Shown here: positions 600 to 61,908 of the stretch, one piece after another | How positions within the stretch are numbered: the first letter of the stretch is position 1 | How the letters are laid out: each line of letters starts with the position of its first letter | Origin: Escherichia coli | GTDB lineage: Bacteria > Pseudomonadota > Gammaproteobacteria > Enterobacterales > Enterobacteriaceae | NCBI RefSeq assembly: GCF_048403405.1 | Contig: NZ_CP183136.1 | Direction: 5' to 3' (one strand) | Length of the DNA stretch: 64,000 nucleotides | Notes under the pieces: generated by a model | What the model saw: only the letters and a program-made list of their open reading frames with translations | Told to the model about the DNA's origin: nothing | Database searches by the model: none | Program-made: the position numbers and the translations under genes

Positions 600-1128
600 G
601 CCCGACTCCGGCGGGGCGGGCTGCTGGCGCAACGGCCAGTCCAGCGAAGCTGTCTGCGCCCTGGTTTCGGGCTGTTGCCACGGTCCGCTGACGCAAAAAC
701 CCGGGTTTGCAGCGACCGGACCGGTCGCGCCGCCCTCTGTCGCGCCGTGGCCTGCGCTCCCGGCATCCCGGCAAAAGGCGCCGGGATGTAAGGCGCAACG
801 CCGTTTCGCGAACCGCGCTTCACGTCGTTGCGGCGGGTCCCTGCCCGTTGTTGTGTCCGGTGCCATTCACCTGTTTAAGCCCCTGTCGCCGGGGGCATAG
901 ACAGCCACAACCTGCCGCACTGACTGTCCAGGGTAAATGAACAGCCCACAAAATTTTTTACCCAAAACCCGGTAAAAACTTTTGCGGTCTGCCCAGGACA
1001 GGTGCGTTTCCGGCCGTGGCAGTGATGCCCCTTGCGGCGAAGGTTCTCAAACAGGTGATGGTGAATACCGGAGGGAACAAAAGGCAGGTCCCCGCAAAAC
1101 GTCAAAACCGCGGCTCCCGAAACTCAAC
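600..1128 (+). repeat. Frpo-like leading-region repeat, copy A
   Basis: About 530 bp of GC-rich sequence near-identical to 58066..58603 and 61376..61908, with internal inverted repeats; ends about 40 bp before the next gene. Confidence 0.7.
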
Positions 1129-1168
1129 AGATGATGGGGGCTGAAAACCAGATAGAGGAGGAAGCAGG

Positions 1169-1372
1169 ATGAGTACCCGAAATATCCACGTTAACACCGC
1201 GTCGTACACGCTATCTTGTTGCCGGGAAGAGAAAAACACAACCGGGGAAGAGTGGGACGTCCTGGAATTCAGGCAGATCCTGCACATCAGAGCTGACAAG
1301 ATATCGCAAAAGCCACCCGGAAAGGATGGCTCTATCAGGTCAATAATGAGCTACGCGACTCAGTCAGGGTAG
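1169..1372 (+). CDS. Hypothetical leading-region protein (67 aa)
   Basis: ORF directly after Frpo copy A with upstream gaggagg RBS; no recognisable family. Confidence 0.4.
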   Translation: MSTRNIHVNTASYTLSCCREEKNTTGEEWDVLEFRQILHIRADKISQKPPGKDGSIRSIMSYATQSG

Positions 1373-1612
1373 CCTGGATAAGCAGTACTCCGCCATATCA
1401 GAAACATTGCGGATGAGCCGATCGCTTCAAACAGTTCCTGCGTCAGATTCAAGCGTGCCGGCCTCGATATCCGGGCGATCTGCTGACCGGATGTGATGAA
1501 TACTCCCTCCTCGGAATTGTTGTCAATCTTGTTAATGGTAGATCGAGGGGGGATGATATTAAGCGGAAAAATTTTTTATTAAATTTATTCTTTCATAAAG
1601 GAGTTAGCTGTT

Positions 1613-2435
1613 ATGCGATTAGCTTCCCGTTTTGGTCGGTATAATTCCATCCGCCGTGAACGTCCTTTAACGGATGATGAATTAATGCAGTTCGTGCCTT
1701 CGGTATTTTCCGGTGATAAACATGAGTCCCGGAGTGAACGTTATACGTATATTCCAACAATCAATATCATCAATAAGTTACGTGATGAAGGTTTCCAGCC
1801 ATTCTTTGCCTGTCAGAGTCGGATTCGTGATTTGGGACGTCGCGAATACAGTAAACATATGTTACGTCTTCGCAGGGAAGGGCATATTAACGGGACAGGA
1901 AGTTCCTGAAATTATCCTGCTTAATTCACATGATGGTTCATCCAGTTATCAGATGATCCCCGGAATTTTTCGTTTTGTCTGCACAAATGGCCTGGTGTGT
2001 GGAAATAATTTTGGCGAAATCCGCGTTCCACATAAAGGTGATATTGTCGGGCAGGTTATCGAGGGAGCGTATGAAGTGCTCGGTGTCTTTGATAAGGTCA
2101 CTGATAATATGGAGGCGATGAAAGAAATTCATCTTAACAGTGACGAGCAACATTTATTTGGCAGAGCTGCACTGATGGTCAGGTATGAAGATGAAAATAA
2201 AACGCCAGTGACACCTGAACAGATAATTACTCCCCGTCGTCGGGAAGACAAACAGAACGATCTCTGGACAACCTGGCAGCGGGTTCAGGAGAATATGATA
2301 AAAGGTGGATTATCGGGGCGAAGTGCCTCCGGGAAAAATACCAGGACAAGAGCCATTACAGGTATTGATGGTGATATAAGAATCAACAAGGCGTTATGGG
2401 TGATTGCCGAACAGTTCAGAAAGTGGAAGTCATGA
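1613..2435 (+). pseudogene. yubP: Leading-region DUF932-like protein (orf273/yubP), frameshifted
   Basis: ORFs 1613..1909 and 1713..2435 are in different frames and together span 823 nt, one base more than 273 codons plus stop; break near 1870. Confidence 0.6.
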
Positions 2436-2440
2436 TAATA

Positions 2441-2480
2441 TAAGTAAAGCCCCGAAAAAATTTTCGGGGCTTTACTTATA
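2441..2480 (+). terminator. Rho-independent terminator after yubP
   Basis: Hairpin aaagccccgaaaa/ttttcggggcttt. Confidence 0.6.
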
Positions 2481-2796
2481 TTATCATTTTGCGGCATTGC
2501 TGTGTCGTCTGATATACCTCAATTTCATCAACCGGCTTTCCGGTTGTCTGTAAATATTGTGCCCGCGAAAAATGGTCTGGCAGGAGGCTGCACAGTTACC
2601 GGGTATATATAAGATGGGTTCCCGCTTCGCGGGGCTTCGGCCAGTCAGCATTATCACTCATATGATATTTTTGTGTGTGGCCTTCCATGCCGCTGTCGCG
2701 GCATAACCGGTATTTGACAATGTCTATAAGATTAATTGTTCTGCACACTGTTAATTTGCGGAAAGTGATTTCTTCGTGGTCGGAAGCCGGATGCCT

Positions 2797-3243
2797 TTAC
2801 TGCTTTTTATCCCAGGTATAAATCCGGTAAACCTCTGATGCGTAGGCAAGACGTCTCTGGTTCTGGCGTTCGGTCTTCCTGAATCCGGCATTGTATGCAC
2901 CAACGGCCTCCCAGGTGACGCCCCATTTTTTAAAGGCTATTGCCAGATAATAAGCACCGGTATAAATGTTCATACAGGGATCTGTTGTCAGATGTTCCGG
3001 CTTAATTCCATAGCGGGCCAGTTCGTTAAAATGCTGGGAATCTACCTGCATCAGTCCGCTGCCATATCCCGTTACCGGATTAATACCGATGGCATTAACC
3101 CGGTAACGGGATTCTTGCCATGATATCGCTCTCAGTAAATCCGGGTCTATTTTGTAATCCCGACCTGCAAGATCAAAGCAATCAGTGGCTTCGCAGATCT
3201 CATTTATAAACATCAGGCAGATTGTTAACATCCATTTTTTCAT
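2797..3243 (-). CDS. Lytic transglycosylase (gene X / orf169)
   Basis: SLT-domain-like sequence ([16 protein letters not shown]...GAYNAG); start [10 protein letters not shown] preceded by gaggtgg RBS; N-terminal signal peptide. Confidence 0.85.
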
Positions 3244-3289
3244 TTTTCCACCTCTGGTGACTTTATCCGTAAATAATTTAACCCACTCC

Positions 3290-3660
3290 ACAAAAAGGCT
3301 CAACAGGTTGGTGGTTCTCACCACCAAAAGCACCACACCCTACGCAAAAACAAGTTTTTGCTGATTTTTCTTTAATATCATAGAGTAGTATATGAAAAAT
3401 TAGTATTGTCTTAACTCTCTTTATGATATTTAAAAAAGCGGTCGTCGACGCAGCTACAGCAACGCGCCGACACCGCTTTGTAGGGGTGGTACTGACTATT
3501 TTTATAAAAAACATTATTTTATATTAGGGGTGCTGCTAGCGGCGCGGTGTGTTTTTTTATAGGATACCGTCTAGGGGCGCTGCTAGCGGTGCGTCCCTGT
3601 TTGCACTATGAATTCTAGTGTTTCGAAATTAACTTTGTTTTATGTTTAAAAAAGGTAATA
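3290..3660 (-). other. oriT: oriT, R100-type; nic on minus strand at about 3334/3335
   Basis: Minus strand reads tttttgcgtagggtgtggtgcttttggtggtgagaaccaccaacctgttgagcc, matching the F/R100 nic region from recall; direct repeats taggggtgctgctagcggcgcg and ctaggggcgctgctagcggtgcg (likely TraM sites) upstream of traM. Confidence 0.8.
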
Positions 3661-3664
3661 TCTA

Positions 3665-4048
3665 ATGGCTAAGGTGAATCTGTATATCAGCAATGATGCT
3701 TATGAAAAAATAAACGCGATTATTGAAAAACGTCGACAGGAAGGGGCAAGAGAAAAAGATGTCAGTTTTTCAGCAACGGCTTCAATGCTTCTTGAACTGG
3801 GTCTTCGTGTATATGAGGCTCAGATGGAGCGCAAAGAGTCTGCATTTAATCAGGCCGAGTTTAATAAACTACTTCTTGAATGCGTTGTAAAAACACAGTC
3901 ATCAGTAGCGAAAATTTTGGGTATTGAGTCTCTCAGTCCTCATGTCTCAGGAAATCCAAAGTTTGAATATGCCAATATGGTTGAAGATATCAGAGAGAAG
4001 GTGTCGGCTGAGATGGAAAGGTTCTTTCCAAAAAATGATGATGAATAA
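3665..4048 (+). CDS. traM: TraM, relaxosome accessory protein
   Basis: 127-aa ORF MAKVNLYISNDAYEKINAIIEKRRQEG..., first gene after oriT. Confidence 0.9.
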   Translation: MAKVNLYISNDAYEKINAIIEKRRQEGAREKDVSFSATASMLLELGLRVYEAQMERKESAFNQAEFNKLLLECVVKTQSSVAKILGIESLSPHVSGNPKFEYANMVEDIREKVSAEMERFFPKNDDE

Positions 4049-4164
4049 AGGGAAATAAATTTTGACTTTGTTCAAATATCAGACTTTTTAATGGTTCAAA
4101 CTGATGACAATAATCGAGAGATAATTAGTATATTAATTACGTGGTTAATGCCACGTTAAAATTT

Positions 4165-4245
4165 GAACTTGAAAATCGCCGATGCAGGGAGCTTGTCCCT
4201 CCCTGCATCGACTGTCCATAGAATCCTTTGTGAGGAGGTTCCTAT
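4165..4245 (-). ncRNA. finP: FinP antisense RNA (approximate bounds)
   Basis: Perfect stem-loop cgatgcagggag-cttgtc-ctccctgcatcg at 4180..4210 in the traJ leader, plus a second hairpin over the traJ RBS and start; bounds inferred. Confidence 0.5.
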
Positions 4246-4938
4246 GTATCCGATGGATCGTATTCAACAAAAACATGCTCGTCAAATCAGATCTGCTGGA
4301 AAATCTGACGGCAGTTATTCAGGATTATCCAAATCCAGCCTGTATCAGGGACGAAACTGGAAAATTTATTTTTTGCAATACGCTGTTTCATGAGTCATTT
4401 CTTACACATAGATCAAAGTGCTGAAAAATGGCTTCTGTCGCAGAGAGATTTTTGTGAATTGATCTCTGTCACAGAGATGGAAGCATACAGGAATGAGCAT
4501 ACGCATCTTAATCTTGTAGAGGATGTTTTTATTCAGAACAGATTCTGGACAATATCTGTCCAGTCATTTCTTAATGGACACAGAAATATTATTACTGGTG
4601 GCAATTTTATGATGCTGCTCATGTTCGTCATAAAGACAGTTATAATCAAAAAACGATTGTCAGTGATGATATCAGAAATATAATCAGAAGAATGAGTGAT
4701 GATTCTTCTGTATCATCATATGTAAATGATGTCTTTTACTTATATAGCACCGGAATCAGTCATAATGCTATAGCAAGAATATTAAATATATCCATCTCCA
4801 CATCAAAGATAACACGCATCTCTGATATGCGACTACTTCTCTGTTTCTAATAAAGATGAGTTAATTATCTTACTCTACAATAAAAAGTTTATTTATTATT
4901 TATACGAGAAGGCTATGTGTATCATAAATACGCGTTAA
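4244..4938 (+). pseudogene. traJ: TraJ transfer activator, multiply frameshifted
   Basis: ORFs 4163..4393, 4182..4424 and 4390..4683 in three frames carry consecutive TraJ-like segments (MYPMDRIQQKHARQI / DLLENLTAVIQDYPNPACIRDETGKF / DQSAEKWLLSQRDFCELISVTEMEAYRNEH). Confidence 0.7.
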
Positions 4939-10959: not shown

Positions 10960-13587
10960 GTGAATAACCCACTTGAGGCCGTCACTCAGGCGGTTAACTC
11001 CCTCGTCACAGCACTGAAACTGCCTGACGAATCCGCAAAGGCCAATGAAGTTCTGGGCGAAATGAGCTTCCCGCAGTTCAGCCGTCTGCTGCCGTACCGT
11101 GATTACAACCAGGAATCCGGTCTGTTCATGAATGACACCACGATGGGCTTTATGCTGGAAGCCATCCCCATCAATGGGGCGAATGAGTCCATTGTGGAGG
11201 CCCTCGATCACATGCTGCGCACCAAACTGCCGCGCGGTATTCCGTTGTGTATCCATCTGATGTCCAGTCAGCTGGTTGGTGACAGGATTGAATACGGGCT
11301 GCGTGAGTTCTCCTGGTCAGGTGAACAGGCTGAACGGTTTAACGCCATTACCCGGGCCTATTATATGAAAGCGGCAGCGACACAGTTTCCGCTGCCGGAG
11401 GGGATGAATCTGCCCCTGACCCTGCGCCATTACCGGGTGTTTATCTCGTACTGTTCTCCTTCGAAGAAAAAAAGCCGGGCCGACATTCTGGAAATGGAAA
11501 ACCTGGTGAAAATCATCCGGGCGTCGTTACAGGGGGCCAGTATCACCACACAGACGGTGGATGCACAGGCCTTTATCGATATTGTCGGGGAGATGATTAA
11601 CCATAACCCGGACTCCCTGTACCCGAAAAGACGTCAGCTGGACCCGTATTCTGATCTGAATTATCAGTGTGTGGAGGACAGTTTTGATCTGAAAGTCCGG
11701 GCTGATTACCTGACGCTGGGCCTGCGTGAGAACGGCAGGAACAGCACGGCCCGCATCCTGAATTTCCATCTGGCCCGTAACCCGGAAATCGCCTTCCTGT
11801 GGAACGTGGCCGACAACTACAGCAACCTGCTGAACCCGGAACTGTCCATCTCCTGTCCGTTCATCCTGACGCTGACTCTGGTGGTGGAAGACCAGGTGAA
11901 AACCCACAGCGAAGCCAACCTGAAGTACATGGACCTGGAGAAAAAGTCGAAGACCTCCTATGCCAAATGGTTTCCGTCCGTGGAGAAAGAGGCGAAGGAG
12001 TGGGGGGAACTGCGTCAGCGGCTGGGCTCCGGTCAGTCCTCCGTGGTGTCCTACTTCCTCAACATCACAGCATTCTGCAAGGACAATAATGAAACGGCGC
12101 TGGAAGTGGAGCAGGACATCCTGAACAGCTTTCGTAAAAACGGTTTTGAGCTGATTTCACCGCGCTTTAACCACATGCGCAATTTCCTGACCTGCCTGCC
12201 CTTTATGGCCGGGAAAGGGCTGTTTAAACAGTTGAAAGAGGCCGGAGTGGTTCAGCGCGCAGAGAGCTTTAATGTTGCCAACCTGATGCCGTTAGTGGCG
12301 GATAACCCCCTGACACCGGCAGGTCTGCTGGCACCCACCTACCGTAACCAGCTGGCGTTTATCGATATTTTCTTCCGGGGGATGAATAACACCAACTACA
12401 ACATGGCGGTCTGTGGCACCTCCGGGGCCGGTAAAACCGGGCTGATACAGCCACTTATCCGCAGCGTGCTGGACTCCGGAGGCTTTGCCGTGGTGTTCGA
12501 CATGGGGGATGGATACAAGTCCCTGTGTGAGAACATGGGCGGGGTGTATCTGGACGGTGAAACCCTGCGTTTTAACCCGTTTGCGAACATCACCGATATT
12601 GACCAGTCAGCGGAGCGTGTCCGTGACCAGTTGTCAGTGATGGCCAGCCCCAACGGTAACCTGGATGAAGTGCATGAAGGTCTGCTGTTGCAGGCGGTCA
12701 GAGCCTCCTGGCTGGCCAAAGAGAACAGAGCACGTATTGATGACGTGGTGGATTTCCTGAAAAACGCCAGTGACAGCGAGCAGTATGCCGAGTCACCGAC
12801 TATCCGCAGCCGTCTGGACGAAATGATTGTGCTGCTTGACCAGTACACTGCCAACGGCACTTACGGCCAGTATTTTAACTCTGATGAGCCGTCCCTGCGG
12901 GATGACGCAAAAATGGTGGTGCTGGAGCTGGGCGGACTGGAAGACCGTCCGTCACTGCTGGTTGCGGTGATGTTCTCCCTGATTATCTACATCGAGAACA
13001 GGATGTACCGCACGCCGCGTAACCTCAAGAAACTGAACGTTATTGATGAAGGCTGGCGTCTGCTGGACTTCAAAAATCACAAGGTCGGTGAATTTATTGA
13101 GAAAGGCTACCGTACGGCCCGCCGTCATACCGGTGCCTATATCACCATCACACAGAACATCGTCGACTTTGACTCTGATAAGGCCTCCAGTGCTGCCCGC
13201 GCGGCATGGGGTAACTCCTCCTACAAAATTATCCTCAAACAGAGTGCGAAGGAGTTCGCGAAATACAACCAACTGTATCCGGACCAGTTCCTGCCACTGC
13301 AGCGCGACATGATTGGTAAGTTTGGTGCGGCCAAAGACCAGTGGTTCAGTTCCTTCCTGCTGCAGGTGGAAAACCATTCCTCCTGGCACCGTCTGTTTGT
13401 GGACCCGTTAAGCCGCGCCATGTACAGCTCTGACGGCCCGGATTTTGAGTTTGTGCAGCAGAAGCGTAAAGAGGGGCTGAGTATTCATGAGGCAGTGTGG
13501 CAGCTGGCGTGGAAGAAGTCAGGGCCGGAAATGGCTTCGCTGGAAGCCTGGCTGGAAGAACATGAGAAATACAGGAGTGTGGCATGA
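10960..13587 (+). CDS. traC: TraC, VirB4-like ATPase
   Basis: 875-aa ORF with Walker A GTSGAGKTG. Confidence 0.95.
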   Translation: MNNPLEAVTQAVNSLVTALKLPDESAKANEVLGEMSFPQFSRLLPYRDYNQESGLFMNDTTMGFMLEAIPINGANESIVEALDHMLRTKLPRGIPLCIHLMSSQLVGDRIEYGLREFSWSGEQAERFNAITRAYYMKAAATQFPLPEGMNLPLTLRHYRVFISYCSPSKKKSRADILEMENLVKIIRASLQGASITTQTVDAQAFIDIVGEMINHNPDSLYPKRRQLDPYSDLNYQCVEDSFDLKVRADYLTLGLRENGRNSTARILNFHLARNPEIAFLWNVADNYSNLLNPELSISCPFILTLTLVVEDQVKTHSEANLKYMDLEKKSKTSYAKWFPSVEKEAKEWGELRQRLGSGQSSVVSYFLNITAFCKDNNETALEVEQDILNSFRKNGFELISPRFNHMRNFLTCLPFMAGKGLFKQLKEAGVVQRAESFNVANLMPLVADNPLTPAGLLAPTYRNQLAFIDIFFRGMNNTNYNMAVCGTSGAGKTGLIQPLIRSVLDSGGFAVVFDMGDGYKSLCENMGGVYLDGETLRFNPFANITDIDQSAERVRDQLSVMASPNGNLDEVHEGLLLQAVRASWLAKENRARIDDVVDFLKNASDSEQYAESPTIRSRLDEMIVLLDQYTANGTYGQYFNSDEPSLRDDAKMVVLELGGLEDRPSLLVAVMFSLIIYIENRMYRTPRNLKKLNVIDEGWRLLDFKNHKVGEFIEKGYRTARRHTGAYITITQNIVDFDSDKASSAARAAWGNSSYKIILKQSAKEFAKYNQLYPDQFLPLQRDMIGKFGAAKDQWFSSFLLQVENHSSWHRLFVDPLSRAMYSSDGPDFEFVQQKRKEGLSIHEAVWQLAWKKSGPEMASLEAWLEEHEKYRSVA

Positions 13588-27032: not shown

Positions 27033-29367
27033 ATGAGTTTTAACGCAAAGGATATGACCCAGGGCGGTCAGATTGCGTCCATGCGTATCCGCATGTTCAG
27101 CCAGATCGCCAATATCATGCTTTACTGCCTGTTTATTTTTTTCTGGATACTCGTTGGTCTGGTTTTATGGGTAAAAATAAGCTGGCAGACGTTTGTGAAC
27201 GGCTGTATTTACTGGTGGTGTACCACGCTGGAAGGCATGCGGGATTTAATCAAGTCCCAGCCGGTATATGAGATCCAGTATTACGGCAAAACCTTCCGGA
27301 TGAACGCTGCTCAGGTACTGCATGATAAATATATGATTTGGTGCGGAGAGCAGCTATGGTCCGCATTCGTTCTGGCCACAGTTGTGGCACTGGTTATTTG
27401 CCTGATTACCTTCTTTGTTGTCTCCTGGATTCTGGGGCGTCAGGGTAAACAACAGAGCGAAAATGAAGTCACAGGTGGTCGTCAGCTGACAGACAATCCG
27501 AAAGACGTTGCCCGGATGCTGAAAAAAGACGGCAAGGACTCCGATATCCGGATTGGCGACCTGCCGATTATCCGGGATTCCGAAATCCAGAACTTCTGTC
27601 TGCACGGCACGGTCGGGGCCGGTAAGTCGGAGGTTATCCGTCGTCTGGCCAACTACGCCCGTCAGCGCGGTGATATGGTGGTGATTTATGACCGTTCAGG
27701 GGAATTTGTTAAAAGTTACTATGATCCCTCCATCGATAAAATCCTGAATCCGCTGGATGCCCGCTGTGCCGCATGGGATTTGTGGAAGGAGTGCCTGACA
27801 CAGCCGGATTTTGATAATACCGCAAATACTCTGATCCCGATGGGTACAAAAGAGGACCCGTTCTGGCAGGGTTCAGGACGTACCATTTTTGCGGAAGCGG
27901 CGTACCTGATGCGTAATGACCCCAACCGCAGCTACAGCAAACTGGTGGACACACTGCTTTCCATCAAAATCGAAAAACTGCGTACCTTCCTGCGTAATTC
28001 ACCGGCGGCCAACCTGGTGGAAGAGAAAATCGAGAAAACGGCGATTTCCATCCGTGCTGTGCTGACCAACTACGTGAAAGCCATCCGTTACCTGCAGGGG
28101 ATTGAGCATAACGGTGAGCCCTTCACCATCCGTGACTGGATGCGTGGTGTCCGGGAAGATCAGAAAAACGGCTGGCTGTTTATCTCATCGAACGCCGACA
28201 CCCATGCCTCCCTGAAGCCGGTGATCTCCATGTGGCTGTCCATTGCCATTCGTGGTCTGCTGGCAATGGGAGAAAACCGTAAACGTCGTGTGTGGTTTTT
28301 CTGTGACGAGTTACCCACGTTACACAAACTGCCGGATCTGGTGGAGATCCTGCCGGAAGCCCGTAAGTTCGGTGGCTGTTATGTGTTTGGTATCCAGTCC
28401 TATGCCCAGCTGGAAGATATCTACGGTGAGAAAGCGGCGGCCACGCTGTTTGACGTCATGAACACCCGTGCTTTTTTCCGTTCTCCCGAGCCATAAGATT
28501 GCAGAGTTCGCTGCCGGTGAGATTGGTGAGAAAGAGCACCTGAAAGCCAGCGAGCAGTATTCCTACGGTGCTGATCCGGTACGTGACGGGGTATCGACCG
28601 GTAAGGATATGGAGCGTCAGACGCTGGTCAGTTATTCCGACATTCAGTCTCTGCCGGATCTGACCTGCTATGTCACTCTGCCCGGACCGTATCCGGCAGT
28701 AAAACTCTCTCTGAAATATCAGGCACGACCGAAGGTCGCTCCGGAGTTTATTCCGCGTGACATCAACCCGGAAATGGAGAACCGTCTGAGTGCCGTACTT
28801 GCCGCAAGGGAAGCAGAAGGTCGTCAGATGGCCAGCCTCTTCGAACCGGAGGTTGCCTCCGGAGAAGATGTGACTCAGGCTGAACAGCCACAACAGCCAC
28901 AACAGCCACAACAGCCACAACAGCCACAACAGTCACAACAGCCACAACAGCCACAACAGCCACAACAGCCACAACAGCCACAACAGCCACAACAGCCACA
29001 ACAGCCACAACAGCCACAACAGCCACAACAGCCACAACAGCCACAACAGCCACAACAGCCACAACAGCCACAACAGCCACAACAGCCAGTGTCTCCTGCC
29101 ATCAACGATAAGAAGTCAGATGCAGGTGTGAGTGTTCCGGCAGGGGGGATCGAGCAGGAGCTGAAAATGAAACCGGAAGAAGAGATGGAACAGCAACTGC
29201 CACCCGGGATCAGTGAATCCGGTGAAGTGGTGGATATGGCCGCTTATGAGGCATGGCAACAGGAAAATCATCCGGACACCCAGCAGCAGATGCAGCGTCG
29301 TGAAGAGGTGAACATTAATGTGCACCGGGAGCGCGGGGAGGATGTTGAGCCGGGAGATGATTTCTGA
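27033..29367 (+). pseudogene. traD: TraD coupling protein, one frameshift near 28480
   Basis: ORF 27033..28496 (Walker A GTVGAGKS) and ORF 28468..29367 (continuing ...[23 protein letters not shown]) are adjacent TraD segments in different frames; contains the QQP repeat. Confidence 0.75.
28885..29086 (+). repeat. 9-bp tandem repeat (cagccacaa), about 22 units, encoding the TraD C-terminal QQP tract
   Basis: Directly visible periodicity, with one variant unit cagtcacaa. Confidence 0.9.
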
Positions 29368-39469: not shown

Positions 39470-39570
39470 TTTAAGGAATTTTGTGGCTGGCCACGCCGTA
39501 AGGTGGCAGGGAACTGGTTCTGATGTGGATTTACAGGAGCCAGAAAAGTGAAAACCCCGATAATCTTCAG
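39470..39570 (-). ncRNA. copA: CopA antisense RNA (approximate)
   Basis: Position between copB and tap/repA1 in a RepFII replicon; bounds not resolved. Confidence 0.4.
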
Positions 39571-39654
39571 CAAGTTTGGCGACTAAGAAGAAGATTAACG
39601 GGGCTAACAAGAAACCGCATAGAAGCTGTTGCTCTATGCGGGGAGTATAGTTAT

Positions 39655-40850: not shown

Positions 40851-41298
40851 TTAAACACCTGTTTATATCTCCTTTAAACTACTTAATTACATTCATTTAA
40901 AAAGAAAACCTATTCACTGCCTGTCCTGTGGACAGACAGATATGCACCTCCCACCGCAAGCGGCGGGCCCCGACCGGAGCCATTTTAGTTACAACACTCA
41001 AATACAAGCACCGGGAAAACCCCAGTCCAGCGCAGAACTGAAACCACAAAGCCCCTCCTCATAACTGAAAAGCGGCCCCGCCCCGGCCCGAAGGGCCGGA
41101 ACAGAGTCGCTTTTAATTATGAATGTTGTAACTACATCATCATCGCTGTCAGTCTTCTGGCTGGAAGTTCTCAGTACACGCTCGTAAGCGGCCCTGACGG
41201 CCCGCTAACGCGGAGATACGCCCCGACTTCGGGTAAACCCTCGTCGGGACCACTCCGACCGCGCACAGAAGCTCTCTCATAGCTGAAAACGGGTATAG

Positions 41299-41430
41299 TC
41301 TGGCAGGGCAAGGGATGGGTAAGGTGAAATCTATCAATCAGTACCGGCTTACGCCGGGCTTCGGCGGTTTTACTCCGGTATCACATGTAACCACAGCGTG
41401 CCGCCTTCCATGCCGCTGGCGCGGCATAAG
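41299..41430 (+). repeat. Conserved motif, copy 2 of 3 (gggtaaggtgaaatctatcaatcagtaccggcttacgccgg ... gccttccatgccgctggcgcggcataa)
   Basis: Shares blocks with 49934..50050 and 2620..2710. Confidence 0.5.
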
Positions 41431-49933: not shown

Positions 49934-50050
49934 TGGTCTGGCAGGGCCGGGGGTGGGTAAGGTGAAACCTGTCAATCAGTACCGGCTTACGCCGGTATCA
50001 TATGCAACAACTGAGTGCCGCCTTCCATATCATATCATTTGCCCGTTTCC
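49934..50050 (+). repeat. Conserved motif, copy 3 of 3
   Basis: tctggcagggccgggggtgggtaaggtgaaacctgtcaatcagtaccggcttacgccgg ... tgccgccttccata, similar to 41299..41430. Confidence 0.5.
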
Positions 50051-52384: not shown

Positions 52385-52560
52385 AAACTCCTTATGGTGT
52401 TTTTTTGGTGTTTGTTTGGGTGTGTTTTGGGCTTTAAATGGGTTTATTTGTCAAGTTTACCCCATTTTAACTATCAATCAATGATTATTTGTCTTGTTTT
52501 GGTGTTTTGTTGGGCTTGGTATGGGTTGTTTTTGGGTTTTGTTTGGCGGATAACAAAAGA
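52385..52560 (-). other. parC: parC centromere
   Basis: Tandem short iterons (ggtgtttgtttgg variants) directly upstream of parM. Confidence 0.65.
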
Positions 52561-52870
52561 TGTCGCCGGGCTCCTCTTTTTACTGCGCCGGCTGACGCGG
52601 CGCGGCATAAACGCTGCCTGTGGTCAGTGTCCCGCGTCCGGTGGGCACGGGACGGGCGCTTTTACCGCTCCCGGCTGGCGTCGGTGACAGTGTACGCCAG
52701 CCTGTCGCCCTTTTCTGATGAACGCCCTTCAAGCCGCTTTCGCGGCATAGCCTTGCCGTCAGAAAGACGACGGCTGCGGTATTCCACGGTCGGCCTGACC
52801 CGTTACCGGACGCGGTGAACAGCCCACAGGCAGCGGGGAACGGGCGCCACAGGGGCGCCCTCCCGATGCT
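52555..52870 (+). repeat. About 320-bp leading-region repeat, family 2, copy 1
   Basis: Near-identical to 53855..54185; GC-rich; ends at the start codon of the downstream gene. Confidence 0.8.
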
Positions 52871-52873
52871 CCT

Positions 52874-53815
52874 GTGAGGATAATTCCCATGCCAAACTGG
52901 TGCTCGAATCGTATGTATTTTTCTGGTGAACCGGCACAGATCGCTGAGATTAAACGACTGGCCAGCGGTGCAGTCACACCGCTTTATCGCCGCGCCACAA
53001 ATGAAGGTATTCAGCTGTTTCTGGCCGGAAGTGCCGGACTTCTGCAGATCACTGAAAATATCCGCTCTGAGCAGTGCCCCGGAGTGACGGCTGCCGGACG
53101 TGGTGCTGTATCACTGGAAAATATCGCGTTCACCCGCTGGCTGACACACCTGCAGAACGGTGTACTGCTGGATGAGCAAAACTGCCTGATGCTGCATGAA
53201 CTCTGGCTGCAGAGCGGTACTGGACAGCGTCGCTGGGAAGGGTTACCGGATGATGTCAGGGAAACTATCACTGTGCATTTCACCGCAAAAAGAGGTGACT
53301 GGTGTGACATCTGGGGTAACGAGGATGTATCGGTGTGGTGGAACCGTCTGTGTGACAACGTACTGCCGGAAAAAACCATGCCGTTTGACCTGCTGACGGT
53401 TTTGCCGACCCGCCTGGATATTGAAGTGAATGGCTTTAACGGCGGTGTTCTGAACGGTGTTCCTTCTGCATATCACTGGTATACAGAACGGTATGGCGTG
53501 AAGTGGCCTTGTGGGTATGACCTGAATATCAGCAGTCAGGGGGAAAACTTCATTCAGGTGGATTTCGACACGCCGTGGTGTCAGCCGGAAAGCGACGTTG
53601 TTGCAGAATTAAGCCGCCGTTTCGGCTGCACGCTGGAGCACTGGTACGCCGAACAGGGCTGCAATTTCTGTGGCTGGCAGTTGTATGAGCGCGGAGAGCT
53701 TGTTGATGTGCTGTGGGGGGAACTGGAATGGTCTTCCCCGACAGATGACGATGAGCTGCCGGAAGTCACCGGACCTGCGTGGATAGTCGACAATGTGACG
53801 CATTATGGCGGATGA
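52874..53815 (+). CDS. Hypothetical leading-region protein (313 aa)
   Basis: Long ORF bracketed by the family-2 repeats; no family recognised. Confidence 0.6.
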   Translation: MRIIPMPNWCSNRMYFSGEPAQIAEIKRLASGAVTPLYRRATNEGIQLFLAGSAGLLQITENIRSEQCPGVTAAGRGAVSLENIAFTRWLTHLQNGVLLDEQNCLMLHELWLQSGTGQRRWEGLPDDVRETITVHFTAKRGDWCDIWGNEDVSVWWNRLCDNVLPEKTMPFDLLTVLPTRLDIEVNGFNGGVLNGVPSAYHWYTERYGVKWPCGYDLNISSQGENFIQVDFDTPWCQPESDVVAELSRRFGCTLEHWYAEQGCNFCGWQLYERGELVDVLWGELEWSSPTDDDELPEVTGPAWIVDNVTHYGG

Positions 53816-53854
53816 AGTATGACGGAGACGGGCGGGCAACCGCCCGTTTCTTTT

Positions 53855-54185
53855 CCGACAAAGGATGTCGCCGTGCTCCTCTTTTTACTGCGCCGGCTGA
53901 CGCGGCGCGGCATAAACGCTGCCTGTGGTCAGTGTCCCGCGTCCGGCGGGCACGGGGCGGGCGCTTTTACCGCTCCCGGCTGGCGTCGGTGACAGTGTAC
54001 GCCAGCCCGTCGCCCTTTTCTGATGAACGCCCTTCAAGCCGCTTTCGCGGCATAACCTTGCCGTCAAAAAGACGACGGCTGCGGTATTCCACGGTCGGCC
54101 TGACCCGTTACCGGACGCGGTGAACAGCCCACAGGCAGCGGGGAACGGGCACCACAGGGGTGCCCTCCCGGTGCCCTCTGTAAGA
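53855..54185 (+). repeat. About 320-bp leading-region repeat, family 2, copy 2
   Basis: Near-identical to 52555..52870; abuts the methyltransferase start. Confidence 0.8.
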
Positions 54186-54198
54186 GAAGGAGTTTCGT

Positions 54199-54882
54199 AT
54201 GTCCCGTTTTGTCCTCGGTAACTGCATCGATGTTATGGCCCGTATTCCTGATAACGCCATTGATTTCATCCTCACCGACCCGCCATATCTCGTCGGTTTC
54301 CGTGACCGTTCCGGGCGCACCATCGCCGGCGATAAAACCGATGAGTGGCTGCAACCGGCCTGTAATGAAATGTTCCGCGTGCTGAAAAAAGACGCGTTAA
54401 TGGTGAGCTTCTACGGCTGGAACCGCGTCGATCGCTTTATGGCCGCCTGGAAAAATGCGGGATTCAGCGTTGTTGGTCACCTGGTCTTCACCAAAAACTA
54501 TACATCGAAGGCCGCATATGTGGGCTATCGCCACGAATGCGCCTACATCCTGGCAAAAGGCCGTCCACGTCTGCCACAAAACCCGCTGCCGGACGTGCTG
54601 GGCTGGAAATATTCGGGCAATCGCCATCACCCGACGGAAAAGCCCGTTACCAGCCTGCAACCGCTGATTGAGAGCTTCACACACCCGAACGCAATTGTGC
54701 TGGACCCGTTTGCAGGCAGCGGCTCAACCTGCGTCGCCGCCCTCCAGTCCGGACGCCGGTATATCGGTATCGAGCTGCTTGAGCAGTATCACCGTGCCGG
54801 GCAGCAACGCCTTGCCGCCGTGCAACGGGCCATGCAGCAGGGGGCCGCGAATGATAACTGGTTTATGCCGGAGGCTGCGTAA
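54199..54882 (+). CDS. Orphan DNA methyltransferase (beta-class amino-MTase, DPPY motif)
   Basis: Motifs ILTDPPY and VLDPFAGSGST; no adjacent restriction endonuclease. Confidence 0.8.
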   Translation: MSRFVLGNCIDVMARIPDNAIDFILTDPPYLVGFRDRSGRTIAGDKTDEWLQPACNEMFRVLKKDALMVSFYGWNRVDRFMAAWKNAGFSVVGHLVFTKNYTSKAAYVGYRHECAYILAKGRPRLPQNPLPDVLGWKYSGNRHHPTEKPVTSLQPLIESFTHPNAIVLDPFAGSGSTCVAALQSGRRYIGIELLEQYHRAGQQRLAAVQRAMQQGAANDNWFMPEAA

Positions 54883-56374: not shown

Positions 56375-56379
56375 TGATG

Positions 56380-56790
56380 GCGGGGAAAATCCCCGCCTTT
56401 TTCCTGCCGGTCCCCGGACAGAGCACAAAGGAAGTCGCCGCCGGCTCCGCTTTACCCGGCCATGCGGGGCATGGCCTTGTGGGGGTTCAGTTATGTGGCC
56501 TCAGCGTCGTGTGCGGGCTGTGCCGTGCCTCCATCGTAGCCGGGCTTCTGCGGGCGGGTTGCAAGGTAAGGTGAACCGCTGCGGTCACCCGGTCCCTCCT
56601 TCCCGTCTGCCGTGATTTTCCGGTCGTTCACCCGCTCAGATTTCGCGGTCTCACCCTCCAACTCCCGCCAGCCGTGTGCGTCAGGCTGCGGCTTCCCTTG
56701 CGCCCTTGCAACCCTGCAGGCCCGGCAAAGATGGAGGCACGGCACCGCCCGGTGTCGCGGAATATGTGAACAACGGAGGAAAACATCATG
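56380..56790 (+). promoter_or_regulatory. Structured GC-rich intergenic region upstream of the klcA homologue
   Basis: Long-range inverted repeats (tgccgtgcctccatc at 56519.. pairs with gatggaggcacggca at 56730..; ttgcaagg / ccttgcaa). Confidence 0.5.
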
Positions 56791-57213
56791 CAATATGCGA
56801 AACCTGTCACTCTGAACGTTGAAGAGTGTGACCGTCTCTCCTTTCTGCCTTACCTGTTTGGCAACGATTTTCTGTATGCCGAGGCGTATGTGTACGCGCT
56901 GGCGCAAAAAATGATGCCGGAATATCAGGGAGGCTTCTGGCATTTCATCCGCCTGCCGGACGGTGGCGGTTACATGATGCCGGATGGCGACCGTTTTCAT
57001 CTGGTCAACGGTGAAAACTGGTTTGACCGCACTGTGAGTGCTGATGCCGCAGGTATCATCCTGACTTCCCTTGTGATTAACCGCCAGTTGTGGCTGTACC
57101 ACGACAGCGGGGATGCGGGACTGACACACCTTTACCGGATGCGCGATGCGCAGTTGTGGCGTCACATCGAATTTCACCCCGAATGCAATGCGATTTACGC
57201 GGCACTGGACTGA
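56788..57213 (+). CDS. klcA: KlcA/ArdB-family anti-restriction protein homologue
   Basis: 141 aa, resembles KlcA/ArdB from recall (LSFLPYLFG...[15 protein letters not shown]...[12 protein letters not shown]). Confidence 0.7.
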
Positions 57214-57679: not shown

Positions 57680-57870
57680 TGAATATCAGCAAGGAAACCC
57701 GCGAAATTCTGCGTAATTACAGGGCCGTGATTAATGCGCGGCGTCGTGAAATGGGGCAGAAACCGCTCACCACCGCGCAGATTGTTGATGAAATATGTGA
57801 TTTTGTGGTGAATCAGCAGGCTGTTTTCCTCGGTGGTCACTACATCCTTCAGGGCAGCAGGCACAGGTGA
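57679..57870 (+). CDS. Hypothetical protein (63 aa)
   Basis: ORF overlapping the previous stop. Confidence 0.35.
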   Translation: MNISKETREILRNYRAVINARRREMGQKPLTTAQIVDEICDFVVNQQAVFLGGHYILQGSRHR

Positions 57871-58065
57871 TACAGGGCAGGCGGTGGAGGCCGCCTGTCA
57901 GCCCGCGCGAAAACCCCTGGCAGGCTGGCGCCTGCCGGAAGGGAAGCGGGCCACGCTGGCGCGTCGCCCGTTACCCTTCCCGTTTGTGATGTGTCCGGAA
58001 TGTTTTTTCCTGATGTTATGTTTCTGTGGTTACTGTTCTTCTTCTTCCTCTTCTTTCCGTTCCTC

Positions 58066-58603
58066 TCCTGTTTATGCCTTTTCCGGGCGTCCCCCTGGCG
58101 GGGCGGGCTGTCGTGAACGGAGCCAGCGGAGCTGTCTCCGCCCTGGCGGGCTTCCATCCCTGACGCAAAACCCCGGGTTTGCAGCGACCGGAACGGTCGC
58201 GCCACCCCTGTCGCGCCGTGGCCTGCGCTCCCGGCATCCCGGCAAAAAGACGCCGGGATGTAAGGAGCAACGCCGTTTCGCAAACCGCGCTTCACGTCGT
58301 TGCAGCGGGTCCCTGCTCATTGCCTGCCGGGTGCCACACACCCGTATGAGTCCCTGTCGCCGGGGGCTGATACAGCCACAACCTGCCGCACTGACTGTCC
58401 AGGGTAAATGAACAGCCCACAAAATTTTTTACCCAAAACCCGGTAAAAAATTTTGCGTTCTGCCCAGGACAGGTGCGTCAGGCCGTGGCAGTGATGCCCC
58501 TTGCGGCGAAGGTTCTCAAACGGGTGAAGTTCATACCACAGGGAATACAGCAGCAGGTTCCCGCGAAACGTCAAAACCGCGGCTCCCGAAACTCAACGGG
58601 TGA
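58066..58603 (+). repeat. Frpo-like leading-region repeat, copy B
   Basis: Near-identical to copy C at 61376..61908 and similar to copy A. Confidence 0.8.
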
Positions 58604-58837
58604 TGTTCTTTAAAAATCAGGATTTATTTCAGGCTCCGGCAATACGCATTTATGTGTTCTGTCAGTCATCCGGCTGGCAGGTAATGAAAACGCAGGAACA
58701 GAAGGAGGAAAACACCGGAAAGCGTCAGATGCAGATATGAAAAAAAGCAGGTCAGGGACCTGCTTAATCCACGCCGTAAGAATTGTGCGACCAATTTTGA
58801 CGGCATTGTTAACCAATTTGTCATAAGGAATCCATTT

Positions 58838-59068
58838 ATGACTGTAAGCATTGTTTCACCTTCCGCAGCGGCTGTAAAGCCCCGCCGTCATCCCCGTTTC
58901 AGACGCGAAGACATCCCCGCGCCGGAACTTGACCCCGTGCTGAAAGCCTTCGGGCGACACATTGCCCGGAGTTTTCGCCGGGGGCGTGGTGTACACATCC
59001 CCGCCATGAAAAACACGGCCTTCGGGCAGGTGCTCCGCACACTCGAACTGAAACGCGCTTTTAACTGA
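58838..59068 (+). CDS. Hypothetical basic protein (76 aa)
   Basis: ORF downstream of Frpo copy B. Confidence 0.4.
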   Translation: MTVSIVSPSAAAVKPRRHPRFRREDIPAPELDPVLKAFGRHIARSFRRGRGVHIPAMKNTAFGQVLRTLELKRAFN

Positions 59069-59119
59069 TGAGGTGAGCCGCCCCGCGAGGGGCGGCAACA
59101 GACGGAAGGAGAACATTTT

Positions 59120-60481
59120 ATGACATTAGCAGCAATCACCATGACCGCCCCGGAAGCCGCCAGCCCGGTGCAGATGTACCGCGCGACCTACTCACCGGAT
59201 GACAACAAACTGCGCCTGTATGCCGTGTCACGTCTTGACCCGGAGACGTATAAAAAAGTGCATGATGCCGGTTTTCGCTGGGCACCAGAACAGGCGCTGT
59301 TTGTGGCTCCAGCCTGGACACCGGGCCGGGAAGACGTGCTCCTCTCACTTGCCGGAGAGATTGAGGATGAAGACAGCACGCTCGCTGAACGTCAGGAAGC
59401 ACGGGCGGAGCGGTTTACCGGATACAGCGGAAAGCGGGCCAGTGAATCCGCACAGGCACTTGATGAAGTGGAAAGACTGGCCGCGATGATCCCGCCCGGT
59501 CAGCCCATTCTTGTGGGGCATCACAGCGAACGCCGCGCCCGTCGTGATGCGCAGCGTATTGAAAACGGCATGAAACGTGCCGTGATGCTCTTTGAACGTG
59601 CGGAATACTGGGAAGAACGTGCGCGGTCGGCACTGCTTCACGCGAAGTATAAAGAACGTCCGGACGTTCGCTGGCGTCGTATCAAAAAAATCGAAGCTGA
59701 TTTGCGCAAGGCTGAAAAGACCATCGCACAGTCGCAGAAATATCTGACGATGTGGCGGGCTGAATCGCTGGATCTGAATATGGCAAAACTCATCAGCAGT
59801 CATGACCATATCAGCGCCTGTTTCCCGCTGGATACGTATCCGCGCCCGGCAGAAAAAAGCCAGTATGAAGGAAGTCGATCGTTATGGTCGGCCCTGGATG
59901 ATGACATCATCACCACGGAGCAGGCCCGCGAAATTGCGATCCGCTGTCATGAACGGCAGATTCAGCATCAGCAACGCTGGGTTAACCACTATCAGAACCG
60001 CCTGATCTATGAGCGTGCCATGCTGGACGAAAGCGGCGGCGTGGTTACCCGGACACAGGATTTTGAGCCGGGCGGACAGGTTTTCAGCCGGGGCGAGTGG
60101 CTGACCATCATCCGCGTGAACAAAAGCAACGGGGCGGTGAGTTCAGTCACAACGCCGAATTACAGTTTTCTCGGGTACAGCGGCACGATGAAAGTGACGC
60201 CCGATCGCATCACGGACTACAAAGCACCATCGGCAGAAGAGGCTGCCGTCGCCAGCCAGGCCGCGAAGCGTCCGCCGGTAGTCAACTATCCGGGGGAAGG
60301 TTTCCGGGAAATGACAAAGGCGCAGTGGGCCGCCCTGCCCCGGGACTGTAAGGCCGTGCGCAGTGTGGCAGAGACAGAAGACCACGGGGCATACCGCTAC
60401 CGCCGCACAATGGACAATAATTTCCGCCTGGTGAATGTGTATATCACCGACATGAAAATCACGGAAATCCCGCAGAAATAA
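59120..60481 (+). CDS. Hypothetical leading-region protein (453 aa)
   Basis: Long ORF with RBS ggaaggag; no family recognised. Confidence 0.6.
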   Translation: MTLAAITMTAPEAASPVQMYRATYSPDDNKLRLYAVSRLDPETYKKVHDAGFRWAPEQALFVAPAWTPGREDVLLSLAGEIEDEDSTLAERQEARAERFTGYSGKRASESAQALDEVERLAAMIPPGQPILVGHHSERRARRDAQRIENGMKRAVMLFERAEYWEERARSALLHAKYKERPDVRWRRIKKIEADLRKAEKTIAQSQKYLTMWRAESLDLNMAKLISSHDHISACFPLDTYPRPAEKSQYEGSRSLWSALDDDIITTEQAREIAIRCHERQIQHQQRWVNHYQNRLIYERAMLDESGGVVTRTQDFEPGGQVFSRGEWLTIIRVNKSNGAVSSVTTPNYSFLGYSGTMKVTPDRITDYKAPSAEEAAVASQAAKRPPVVNYPGEGFREMTKAQWAALPRDCKAVRSVAETEDHGAYRYRRTMDNNFRLVNVYITDMKITEIPQK

Positions 60482-60527
60482 GGTATATCCCCCCGGGAAA
60501 TCCCCGGGGGATGACGGAGATAATGAT

Positions 60528-61091
60528 ATGCACAGTCAGTTAAAAGAACGTATCCGGCTGATGCGCGCAAGGCTGGATAACGCCGCGCCGGTTGCTGAAA
60601 TCCGGGCTGAATCTCAGCTTTTTGTGACTCCTGCCCCGGTCTGTGATCGCCTGGTGACGCTGGCGGAGATCAGCAACCGTGATCACATTCTGGAACCCTC
60701 TGCCGGCACCGGGGCCATACTGCGGGCGATTCGTCATGTCGCGCCGGGGGCCATGTGTGATGCGGTGGAGATTAACAGCGGGCTGGTCCGGTATCTGCGG
60801 GATAATTTTAACGGTGTCAGGGTTCAGTGTGGCGACTTCATGGAATGGCAGCCGGTGCAGTATTACAGCCGGATTATCATGAATCCGCCGTTCAGTCACG
60901 GGCAGGATATCCGGCATATCCTGCGGGCTTTTTCCCTGTTGCGTCCGGGTGGTGTGCTGGTTGCCGTCTGTCTGAACGGGCCGCGCCAGCAGGAGAAGCT
61001 GTTACCGTTTTCTGATGTCCGCGAGGTGCTGCCGTGCGGCACATTTGCTTATACCCGTGTTCCGACGATGATTATTCGTCTGCGTGCCTGA
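60528..61091 (+). CDS. Putative SAM-dependent methyltransferase (NPPF motif)
   Basis: Motifs EPSAGTGA and IIMNPPF. Confidence 0.65.
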   Translation: MHSQLKERIRLMRARLDNAAPVAEIRAESQLFVTPAPVCDRLVTLAEISNRDHILEPSAGTGAILRAIRHVAPGAMCDAVEINSGLVRYLRDNFNGVRVQCGDFMEWQPVQYYSRIIMNPPFSHGQDIRHILRAFSLLRPGGVLVAVCLNGPRQQEKLLPFSDVREVLPCGTFAYTRVPTMIIRLRA

Positions 61092-61270
61092 TGACTCCGG
61101 GCAGGCGGGAGGATAAATGCCCGTCTGCCCGCGCCGGGAAAAGACCGCGCGCCGGTGGCGCTGAAAGGGGCCGCGCTTACGCGCCGCCCCTTTCATTACG
61201 CGGACGTTCTGCTGTGGGCTTCTGTCTTTTCAGACCTGTCATTTGCTTGTTACTGATGATGTTGTTGTTC

Positions 61271-61327
61271 CTGCTACTGCTACTGCTACTGCTACTGCTA
61301 CTGCTACTGCTACTGCTACTGCTACTG
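61271..61327 (+). repeat. Hexanucleotide microsatellite (CTGCTA), about 9.5 units
   Basis: Directly visible perfect period-6 repeat. Confidence 0.95.
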
Positions 61328-61375
61328 TTCTTCTTTTTTCTGCTGCTCTGATTACTGTCTGTTTTGTTGTTCTCC

Positions 61376-61908
61376 TGCTTATGCCTTTTCCGGGCGTCCC
61401 CCTGGCGGGGCGGGCTGTCGTGAACGGAGCCAGCGGAGCTGTCTCCGCCCTGGCGGGCTTCCATCCCTGACGCAAAAACCCGGGTTTGCAGCGACCGGAA
61501 CGGTCGCGCCACCCTTGTCGCGCCGTGGCCTGCGCTCCCGGCATCCCGGCAAAAGACGCCGGGATGTAAGGAGCAACGCCGTTTCGCAAACCGCGCTTCA
61601 CGTCGTTGCGGCGGGTCCCTGCCCGTTGTTCTGTCCGGTGCCATTCACCTGTTTAAGCCCCTGTCGCCGGGGGCATAGACAGCCACAACCTGCCGCACTG
61701 ACTGTCCAGGGTAAATGAACAGCCCACAAAATTTTTTACCCAAAACCCGGTAAAAAATTTTGCGTTCTGCCCAGGACAGGTGCGTCAGGCCGTGGCAGTG
61801 ATGCCCCATGCGGCGAAGGTTCTCAAACAGGTGATGGTGAATACCGGAGGGAACAAAAGGCAGGTCCCCGCAAAACGTCAAAACCGCGGCTCCCGAAACT
61901 CAACAGAT
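61376..61908 (+). repeat. Frpo-like leading-region repeat, copy C, upstream of ssb
   Basis: Near-identical to copy B; ends about 40 bp before the ssb start. Confidence 0.8.

Follow-up and report, generated by a model that had tools for sequence, protein, structure and literature searches.

Three Frpo/ssi-family repeats, probable single-strand promoters, in an IncFII plasmid's leading region

Described single-strand promoters and the plasmid studied here

A role of Frpo/ssi elements in early gene expression is established for F and for IncI1 plasmids, and thousands of homologues have been catalogued in large surveys. The minus-strand origins of M13/f1 and the sso of rolling-circle plasmids prime DNA synthesis only and drive no operons. 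These origins resemble the elements described below in that host RNA polymerase recognises a folded single strand, which leads to a primer (PMC7690428), but they have no sequence relationship to them, and a search of the phage collection with the element gave no match. The F homologues are needed for early (zygotic) expression of leading-region genes and prime the complementary strand (PMC9849209; bioRxiv 10.64898/2026.01.09.698686), and deletion of Frpo1 or Frpo2 in F abolishes downstream gene expression (PMC9849209). In pESBL the same promoter class was mapped by 5' RACE (PMC12672017). Class-2 (ssp2, 'Frpo3') and class-3 (ssp3) promoters of F and pESBL follow the same principle in the same region, with reported differences in strength and in replication-roadblock behaviour (PMC12672017; bioRxiv 10.64898/2026.01.09.698686).

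The stretch of DNA analysed here (the window, 64,000 nucleotides) is from an IncFII, pHK01-like conjugative plasmid. Its transfer origin was located by motif match and adjoins traM and traJ:

3326..3343, minus strand: oriT nic-site motif of the R100 type, GTAGGGTGT/GGTGCTTTT (also given as GTAGGGTGT/GGTGC)
3665-4048: traM, adjoining the nic motif
4139-4250: traJ 5'UTR/FinP, adjoining the nic motif

Since the minus strand carries the nic motif, that strand is the one transferred, and the leading genes of the plus strand have it as their template. Both points had been made in an initial annotation of this DNA, and they agree with the common orientation of the repeats and the plus-strand genes downstream of them. 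In the annotation of CP090301.1, the closest complete relative, the leading genes are on the plus strand with two exceptions, a transglycosylase gene adjoining oriT and a small hypothetical ORF beside hok.

Within the window are three direct, GC-rich repeats of approximately 540-560 bp, all in one orientation, here named A, B and C. They belong to the Frpo/ssi element of F-like conjugative plasmids, which has been studied in depth, and as such are already known. We estimate a probability of roughly 0.88 that all three are class-1 ssDNA promoters of the Frpo/ssi family (recently ssp1) in the IncFII leading region.

Repeat copies and their relation to the F elements

588..1148, minus strand (transferred and probably active): copy A, an Frpo1/ssiD-type element by repeat alignment and F homology
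58064..58605, minus strand: copy B, the third copy, at the head of a module absent from F, by repeat alignment
61371..61924, minus strand: copy C, an Frpo2-type element 5' of ssb, by repeat alignment and F homology
588-803 (A), 58064-58274 (B) and 61371-61580 (C): GC-rich extension of about 200 bp, repeated with each hairpin

Three similar copies had initially been placed at 600..1128, 58066..58603 and 61376..61908, and alignment recovered them with boundaries within about 20 bp. Pairwise identities are 92.7% for A and C (561 nt), 93.2% for B and C (544 nt) and 86.6% for A and B (551 nt), and all three share an identical 72-nt core, for which shuffles give an expectation of 0 matches. Conservation is highest in the upper hairpin, with 97-99% identity across the copies (98.7% for that of B). 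In the lower 5' hairpin arm A and C are 100% identical while B reaches only 70.5%, and in the extension B and C share 97.3% identity while A stands at about 80%. The copies are thus mosaics, so that the earlier description of B and C as nearly identical is imprecise. The copies had also been called dispersed, which is true of the window but is an effect of where it was cut, as in CP090301.1 all three are located within 9.2 kb of leading region. The GC content of the copies is 0.61-0.63 versus 0.51 for the window, which explains why ORFs overlap on the two strands, as had been put down to the repeat.

In alignments with the minus strand, the ssiD/Frpo sequence from the literature is 89.1% identical to A (1140->789), 87.9% to C and 79.7% to B (58594->58261). 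Copy A is 86.7% identical to the F Frpo1 locus (NC_002483 63400-64132). Copy C shares 93.8% identity with the F Frpo2 locus and, over 290 nt, 97.2% with the Frpo2 fragment serving as promoter in PMC11541004 (2024). The upstream flank of B runs on into the F Frpo2 flank. All three copies are thus homologous to the experimentally characterised ssiD/Frpo1 and Frpo2 of F, elements also known as ssp1a and ssp1b. The likeness to F (87-94% identity) includes the same strand and the same hairpin of about 320 nt, and for A and C also the gene order, hok followed by Frpo1 and ygeA, and Frpo2 followed by ssb. Homology and shared gene context together justify the label "Frpo-like" used initially. Two differences from F are evident, in that the plasmid studied here has a third copy (B) and that a 3.3-kb DUF4496-DUF3560-methyltransferase module, lying between B and C, is missing from F. 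The F Frpo2 element has a 3' arm of B type (98.1%) and a 5' arm of C type (98.9%), and from these similarities it looks like the product of a crossover between B and C.

Among IncI1 plasmids, the class-1 elements ssi1-ssi3 of ColIb-P9/pESBL are likewise three dispersed leading-region copies, one of them 5' of ssb, with an AT-rich hairpin tip and blocks of 78-88% identity in the upper hairpin and extension. However, their main hairpin is shorter and its lower-stem sequence differs, leaving two short blocks that can be aligned by BLAST. Searches of plasmid records with the hairpin gave hits in at least 5000 records at 13383 places, or some 2.7 copies per record, which makes a set of three typical.

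The hairpin on the transferred strand and candidate promoter boxes

804..1122, minus strand: copy A hairpin, DNA fold -101.3 kcal/mol, z -11.9 (plus strand -87.8 kcal/mol)
58275..58592, minus strand: copy B hairpin, -97.3 kcal/mol, z -10.2 (plus strand -85.3 kcal/mol)
61581..61899, minus strand: copy C hairpin, loop at about 61739-61751, -107.8 kcal/mol (plus strand -98.5 kcal/mol)

Structure prediction for the minus strand returned a single long, stable and imperfect stem-loop of about 318 nt in each of A, B and C (-97 to -108 kcal/mol, z -10.2 to -11.9; z -11.0 for the full 555-nt fold of C). The minus strand is the more stable by 9.3-13.5 kcal/mol and contains 7-8 G.T pairs versus 2-4 on the plus strand, yet the plus strand is strongly folded as well (z -9.5), and the strand bias is therefore moderate. 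In an alignment of eight homologues, Serratia and insect-metagenome sequences among them, 94.4% of the cells pair. Compensatory changes were found at 12 base pairs, compared with no more than 6 in slid controls, and the covariation score was reached by 0 of 500 shuffles.

At least two weak -35/-10 placements fit the stem, none of them canonical:

61798..61826, minus strand: favoured putative promoter in C, TTGAGA-17-nt spacer-CATCAC, on the 5' arm towards the loop
1022-1050 (A) and 58491-58519 (B), minus strand: putative equivalents of the favoured placement
61701..61740, minus strand: less favoured putative promoter in C, AT tract with TTGTGG-17-GACAGT, on the 3' arm away from the loop
923-962 (A) and 58394-58433 (B), minus strand: putative equivalents of the less favoured placement

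With low certainty, we prefer the boxes on the 5' arm. TTGAGA-17-CATCAC is invariant in A, B, C and both F elements, and CATCAC falls within a conserved internal loop, with covarying pairs on the flanks of the bubble; the two hexamers match the consensus at just 4/6 and 3/6 positions. The 3' arm placement has in its favour that it lies in the upper hairpin, the most conserved part and the sole part of the hairpin that BLAST aligns to ColIb-P9, but bulges take up 8 of its 17 spacer bases. Other candidates, namely TTGACG near the stem base, a 5' arm pair CTGACG-20-CAAAAT and a further 3' arm pair TTGTGG-17-GACAGG, were rejected for poor spacing or lack of conservation in F Frpo1/ColIb-P9. A strict scan for sigma-70 promoters on the plus strand in and after the copies, ahead of the three downstream genes, returned none, nor did a terminator scan of the same plus-strand regions, where the stems are not followed by a T-run.

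Downstream operons and alternative roles of the repeats

As first annotated, a gene on the plus strand comes after every copy (the 67-aa ORF, the 76-aa ORF and ssb, respectively):

1169..1372, plus strand: 67-aa ygeA-like ORF, 21 nt downstream of A
58838..61091, plus strand: operon after B, from the CP090301.1 annotation
58838-59068, plus strand: 76-aa DUF4496 ORF, 233 nt downstream of B
59120-60481, plus strand: DUF3560 gene of the operon after B
60528-61091, plus strand: 187-aa SAM-dependent methyltransferase of the operon after B
61946-62473, plus strand: plasmid ssb, true start 61946, 22 nt downstream of C
62525-62764, plus strand: DUF905/yfjA-like gene after ssb (C-downstream genes 61946..62764)

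The N-terminus of the 67-aa ORF is homologous to F YgeA (66% identity, 41 aa), and its ribosome binding site is GAGGAGG; a strong site follows both A and C. PHROG DNA-methyltransferase matches fall in the operon after B (best 2e-30). The ssb product matches NCBIfam NF010292 (1.5e-116, covering 1-175 of 175), and a ParB-like yfjB is next after the yfjA-like gene and runs off the window. An antisense RNA gene lies between copy B and the 76-aa ORF.

If the elements behave as their F homologues do, the minus strand would enter the recipient 5' to 3' from a nick near 3333, and about 318 nt of each arriving element would fold into the long imperfect hairpin. The stem would mimic duplex promoter DNA, with the -10-like region partly unpaired, and host sigma-70 RNA polymerase would bind it and transcribe the same strand in the plus direction. 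Before a complementary strand is made, A would drive the ygeA-like and DUF932 genes, B the DUF4496, DUF3560 and methyltransferase genes, and C ssb, yfjA, yfjB, psiB and psiA. The transcripts could also prime complementary-strand synthesis, and conversion of the region to double-stranded DNA would abolish the hairpin and switch the promoters off. Activity restricted to single strands, a requirement for RNA polymerase and SSB, and priming are all attributed to A, B and C by homology.

The elements might instead have been selected mainly as ssi sites, at which RNA polymerase makes the primer for the complementary strand and mRNA is secondary, a possibility to which we give some weight while considering it rather unlikely. 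The ssiD element was originally isolated as a priming signal, ssp1/Frpo transcripts prime conversion in vivo (bioRxiv 10.64898/2026.01.09.698686; PMC7690428), and a homologue of another ssi, ssiE, is found on the same strand at 2737->2549. However, every copy is located 21-233 nt 5' of an operon on the right strand, in two cases with the strong ribosome binding site, and downstream expression in F is lost upon Frpo1/Frpo2 deletion (PMC9849209). The priming and promoter roles are compatible and not exclusive. It is improbable that only some copies are active and that B is a passive by-product of recombination or module insertion whose genes are expressed otherwise. Although the lower stem of B has diverged furthest and its ORF is the most distant, and although the copies are clearly recombining mosaics with the B-to-C module missing from F, B retains the full hairpin (-97.3 kcal/mol, z -10.2), the invariant TTGAGA-17-CATCAC motif and the 98.7%-identical upper hairpin. 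Its lower-stem differences still pair, no plus-strand duplex promoter precedes the 76-aa ORF, and the order of B, module and C recurs in at least 2405 plasmid records. Of the three, B is nonetheless the copy whose activity is least certain, given its diverged lower stem, the 233 nt to the ORF and the intervening antisense RNA gene.

That the repeat works through RNA, whether as a structured 5' leader, an inter-operon terminator or insulator, or a small RNA gene, appears very unlikely. Strong folding would be expected of the plus strand too, and so of its RNA, and a transcript starting in the 3' arm would have a leader including the upper hairpin. However, plus-sense RNA has A.C mismatches in place of the minus-strand G.T pairs, the plus-strand fold is weaker by 9-13 kcal/mol, the stems lack a following T-run, and no Rfam family was found for the repeats at gathering or permissive thresholds. 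We rejected the reading of the repeats as protein-coding or as a mobile element. Many ORFs of 40-190 aa do cross the copies on both strands, and some database records annotate a 'hypothetical protein' there, yet these ORFs are spread over several frames, which is to be expected with 61-63% GC, and the copies differ by indels whose lengths are not multiples of three. In most records no gene is annotated at the match, and neither terminal inverted repeats nor a transposase accompany the copies.

As single-strand promoters the elements would allow anti-SOS, single-strand-binding and probable anti-restriction genes to be expressed within minutes of plasmid entry, aiding the establishment of resistance plasmids. 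The value of A, B and C is mainly one of annotation, in that spurious GC-rich ORFs are explained and three early operons are defined. Part of the extension is conserved out to ColIb-P9 and Salmonella elements. Speculatively, it could be a separate module, for example an array of small hairpins stalling complementary-strand synthesis or insulating early operons, and the whole unit is perhaps a portable promoter cassette that recombines to gain, lose or swap leading modules, as the apparent hybrid nature of F Frpo2 suggests; we regard this as doubtful. Homologues of the class-2 and class-3 ssDNA promoters, which differ from A, B and C in having no sequence similarity to them, were also located:

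52550-52900, 53850-54200 and 56450-56800: class-2/class-3 ssDNA promoter homologues

The window thus contains six candidate single-strand promoters of three classes.

The three repeat copies and the plasmid that carries them

Three similar copies of the GC-rich Frpo-like repeat had been proposed in the initial annotation, and all three were recovered as direct repeats whether by alignment, by repeat finding or by BLAST:

588-1148, copy A
58064-58605, copy B
61371-61924, copy C

A 72-nt core contains no difference among the three, where none of that kind is expected by chance. Overall identity is 92.7% for A-C, 93.2% for B-C and 86.6% for A-B, and the copies are mosaics. Within the hairpin described below, A and C have the same lower 5' arm (100% identity), against 70.5% in B. 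The upper hairpin varies little, at 97–99% identity among all three, and in the lower 3' arm identity is 97.3% for A-C and 84–87% for B with either of them. In the ~200-bp extension repeated along with each hairpin (588-803, 58064-58274 and 61371-61580), B and C share 97.3% identity, with A at about 80%. The description of B and C as nearly identical therefore holds for the extension and upper hairpin only, the lower arms having diverged in B. Because the copies have a GC content of 0.61–0.63, against 0.51 for the window, they hold many overlapping ORFs on both strands, the spurious frames that had been ascribed to the repeat. Directly upstream of copy C is a tandem (ACTGCT)n of about 9 units (61277-61330), and B and A are preceded by pyrimidine-rich CT tracts (57990-58060 and 500-590, respectively); all are purine-rich on the transferred strand.

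Thousands of IncF plasmids match the window ends, the best being ~70-kb IncFII plasmids at 99.7% identity. Rfam also placed antisense RNAs originally described on plasmid pHK01 in the window, in addition to two of the following features:

4139-4250, traJ 5' UTR and FinP (Rfam)
39546-39637, CopA (Rfam)
3326-3343, minus strand, R100-type nic motif (GTAGGGTGT/GGTGCTTTT)

The nic motif lies immediately left of traM (at 3665). Because it sits on the minus strand, this is the transferred strand, as had been claimed. Entering 5' to 3' in the direction of decreasing coordinates, it serves as template for the plus-strand leading genes. In a complete relative (CP090301.1), the ~2.2 kb between the window's end and start comprise the remaining parB-like gene, psiB and psiA. 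All three copies fall inside 9.2 kb of one leading region of that plasmid, and no fourth copy was found in it.

Hairpin structure and candidate promoter placements on the transferred strand

DNA folding, which had been suggested as a check, gave a single imperfect hairpin of ~318 nt on the minus strand of each copy:

804-1122, minus strand, hairpin A, -101.3 kcal/mol, z -11.9
58275-58592, minus strand, hairpin B, -97.3 kcal/mol, z -10.2
61581-61899, minus strand, hairpin C, -107.8 kcal/mol (full 555-nt copy, z -11.0)

The plus strand folds too (z -9.5), yet in every copy its fold is 9.3–13.5 kcal/mol weaker, with 2–4 G.T pairs against 7–8 on the minus strand, the pattern expected if pairing were selected on the transferred strand. 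Copies A, B and C, F Frpo1 and Frpo2, and three distant published candidates (Serratia marcescens, insect metagenome) were aligned for covariation. The consensus structure of these eight sequences has 92 pairs, with 94.4% of cells paired. Compensatory changes occur in 12 pairs, against 2–6 when partners were slid by 1–3 columns, and the covariation score was attained by 0 of 500 column shuffles, although these are related sequences and the structure came from the same alignment on which it was tested.

A strict sigma-70 scan found no canonical -35/-10 pair in the copies. The placement we favour, with a probability of roughly 0.55, is TTGAGA-17-CATCAC, which runs along the 5' arm in the direction of the loop (61826-61798 in C). 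The opposite arm measures 16 nt across this stretch, and therefore the duplex geometry is near that of a normal promoter. CATCAC within the internal loop is unpaired in all homologues, the pairs flanking the loop covary, and the motif is invariant in 5/5 F-type copies, including B, where the surrounding lower stem has diverged by 30%. A second placement, in which the AT tract at the tip is followed by TTGTGG-17-GACAGT along the 3' arm and the promoter points away from the loop (61740-61701 in C), is less probable: it falls where the element is most conserved, in the only hairpin segment aligned with ColIb-P9 by BLAST, and was wholly kept in the 2024 construct, but 8 bases of the 17-nt spacer bulge out and its spacing is shifted in F Frpo1. 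That neither placement is correct is less probable still. With the 5'-arm placement as with the 3'-arm alternative, the minus strand is the sole available template and transcription proceeds into the downstream plus-strand genes.

By analogy with F and IncI1 homologues (PMC9849209, PMC12672017, PMC7690428, bioRxiv 10.64898/2026.01.09.698686), the entering single strand would fold into the hairpin, on which host RNA polymerase would start. The downstream operon would then be expressed ahead of complementary-strand synthesis, which the hairpin transcript could itself prime, and conversion to duplex DNA would turn the promoter off.

Relation to F, downstream genes and prevalence

The ssiD locus of F is reportedly the element that Masai and Arai named Frpo. 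Its sequence, published in supplementary file 4 of PMC11541004, aligned to the minus strands of A, C and B at 89.1%, 87.9% and 79.7%, respectively, which bears out the Frpo-like identity. In F (NC_002483), the counterpart of A is Frpo1, located between hok and ygeA (86.7% over 777 nt), and that of C is Frpo2, which precedes ssb (93.8% over 711 nt). PMC11541004 used an Frpo2 fragment to drive an anti-CRISPR gene, and this fragment matches 61659-61948 at 97.2% identity. The upstream flank of B runs on into the F Frpo2 flank, and therefore the 3.3-kb module between B and C is absent from F. Frpo2 of F combines a B-type lower 3' arm (98.1%) with a C-type lower 5' arm (98.9%), which is the product expected of a B x C crossover inside the upper hairpin, where the two are almost the same; the reverse event, by which the window lineage acquired the module, is an alternative.

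Each copy heads a plus-strand gene, as initially annotated. The 67-aa ORF begins 21 nt past A and shares 66% identity with F YgeA over residues 1–41, beyond which it departs. Plasmid ssb (61946-62473; NCBIfam NF010292, 1.5e-116) begins 22 nt past C and is followed by a DUF905 gene and then a ParB-like gene. The 76-aa DUF4496 ORF starts 233 nt past B, followed by DUF3560 and a SAM-dependent methyltransferase of 187 aa that matches DNA-methyltransferase PHROGs. An AS-pc01 antisense RNA (Rfam; 58742-58878, minus strand) overlaps the RBS and start codon of the 76-aa ORF, with its own sigma-70-like promoter (TTTACA-17-AACAAT, 58878->58850) and terminator (58765-58745). Its transcription requires the plus strand, and it may therefore silence this ORF once the DNA is double-stranded. 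A frameshift, through either pseudogene formation or sequencing error, splits the DUF932/ygeB-like gene (1613-2435) into two overlapping frames of 98 and 240 aa; its counterpart in relatives is one gene of 273 aa.

Earlier work found that ColIb-P9 and further IncI1 plasmids carry three dispersed Frpo-like repeats within a single leading region (PMC3817090, through which the description is also attributed to Bates 1999) and that F carries two (PMC9849209). Surveys have reported 13,089 Frpo homologues among 6,006 conjugative elements (PMC11541004) and annotated homologues across PLSDB (PMC12826799). The copy C hairpin matches at least 5000 plasmid records, at 13,383 places among the matches listed (~2.7 per record), and had no match in phage records. 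Sampled plasmid records carry 1–4 copies, most often 3, and at least 2405 keep the entire stretch from B through the module to C. Because of these earlier descriptions, surveys and counts, the finding correctly identifies an element that is already known, in an arrangement that is typical.

Other candidate single-strand elements and repeats

A GC-rich stretch at 56430-56800, upstream of an antirestriction (klcA/ardB-like) ORF (56788-57213), has a strong minus-strand fold of -92.4 kcal/mol (z -4.7). Its identity to the sequence ahead of yfgB in F is 90.6%, and in ColIb-P9 the sequences ahead of klcA and ardA match it at 91.6% and 88.9%, respectively. The stretch probably represents the class-2 ssDNA promoter (ssp2) described in the literature. 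A 300-nt direct repeat (97%; 52553-52852 and 53858-54157), labelled 'hypothetical protein' in related records, lies upstream of a DUF1281 gene and a DNA methylase gene. Its minus strand reaches about -92 to -93 kcal/mol in a 300-nt sliding fold, and a 356-nt fold of the second copy gave -102.9 kcal/mol (z -6.0). Identity to the sequence that precedes the methylase in F is 93–95%. Both copies are probably class-3 ssDNA promoters (ssp3), whereas the F stretch examined holds one. A homologue (94.2%) of ssiE, another published single-strand initiation sequence of F, is located at 2549-2737 on the minus strand, between the DUF932 gene and a transglycosylase gene near oriT. A 60-nt direct repeat (92%) occurs outside the leading region at 41298-41357 and 49936-49995, 8.6 kb apart, and about 33 units of a 9-nt tandem repeat within the tra region (28831-29133) are probably a coding repeat.
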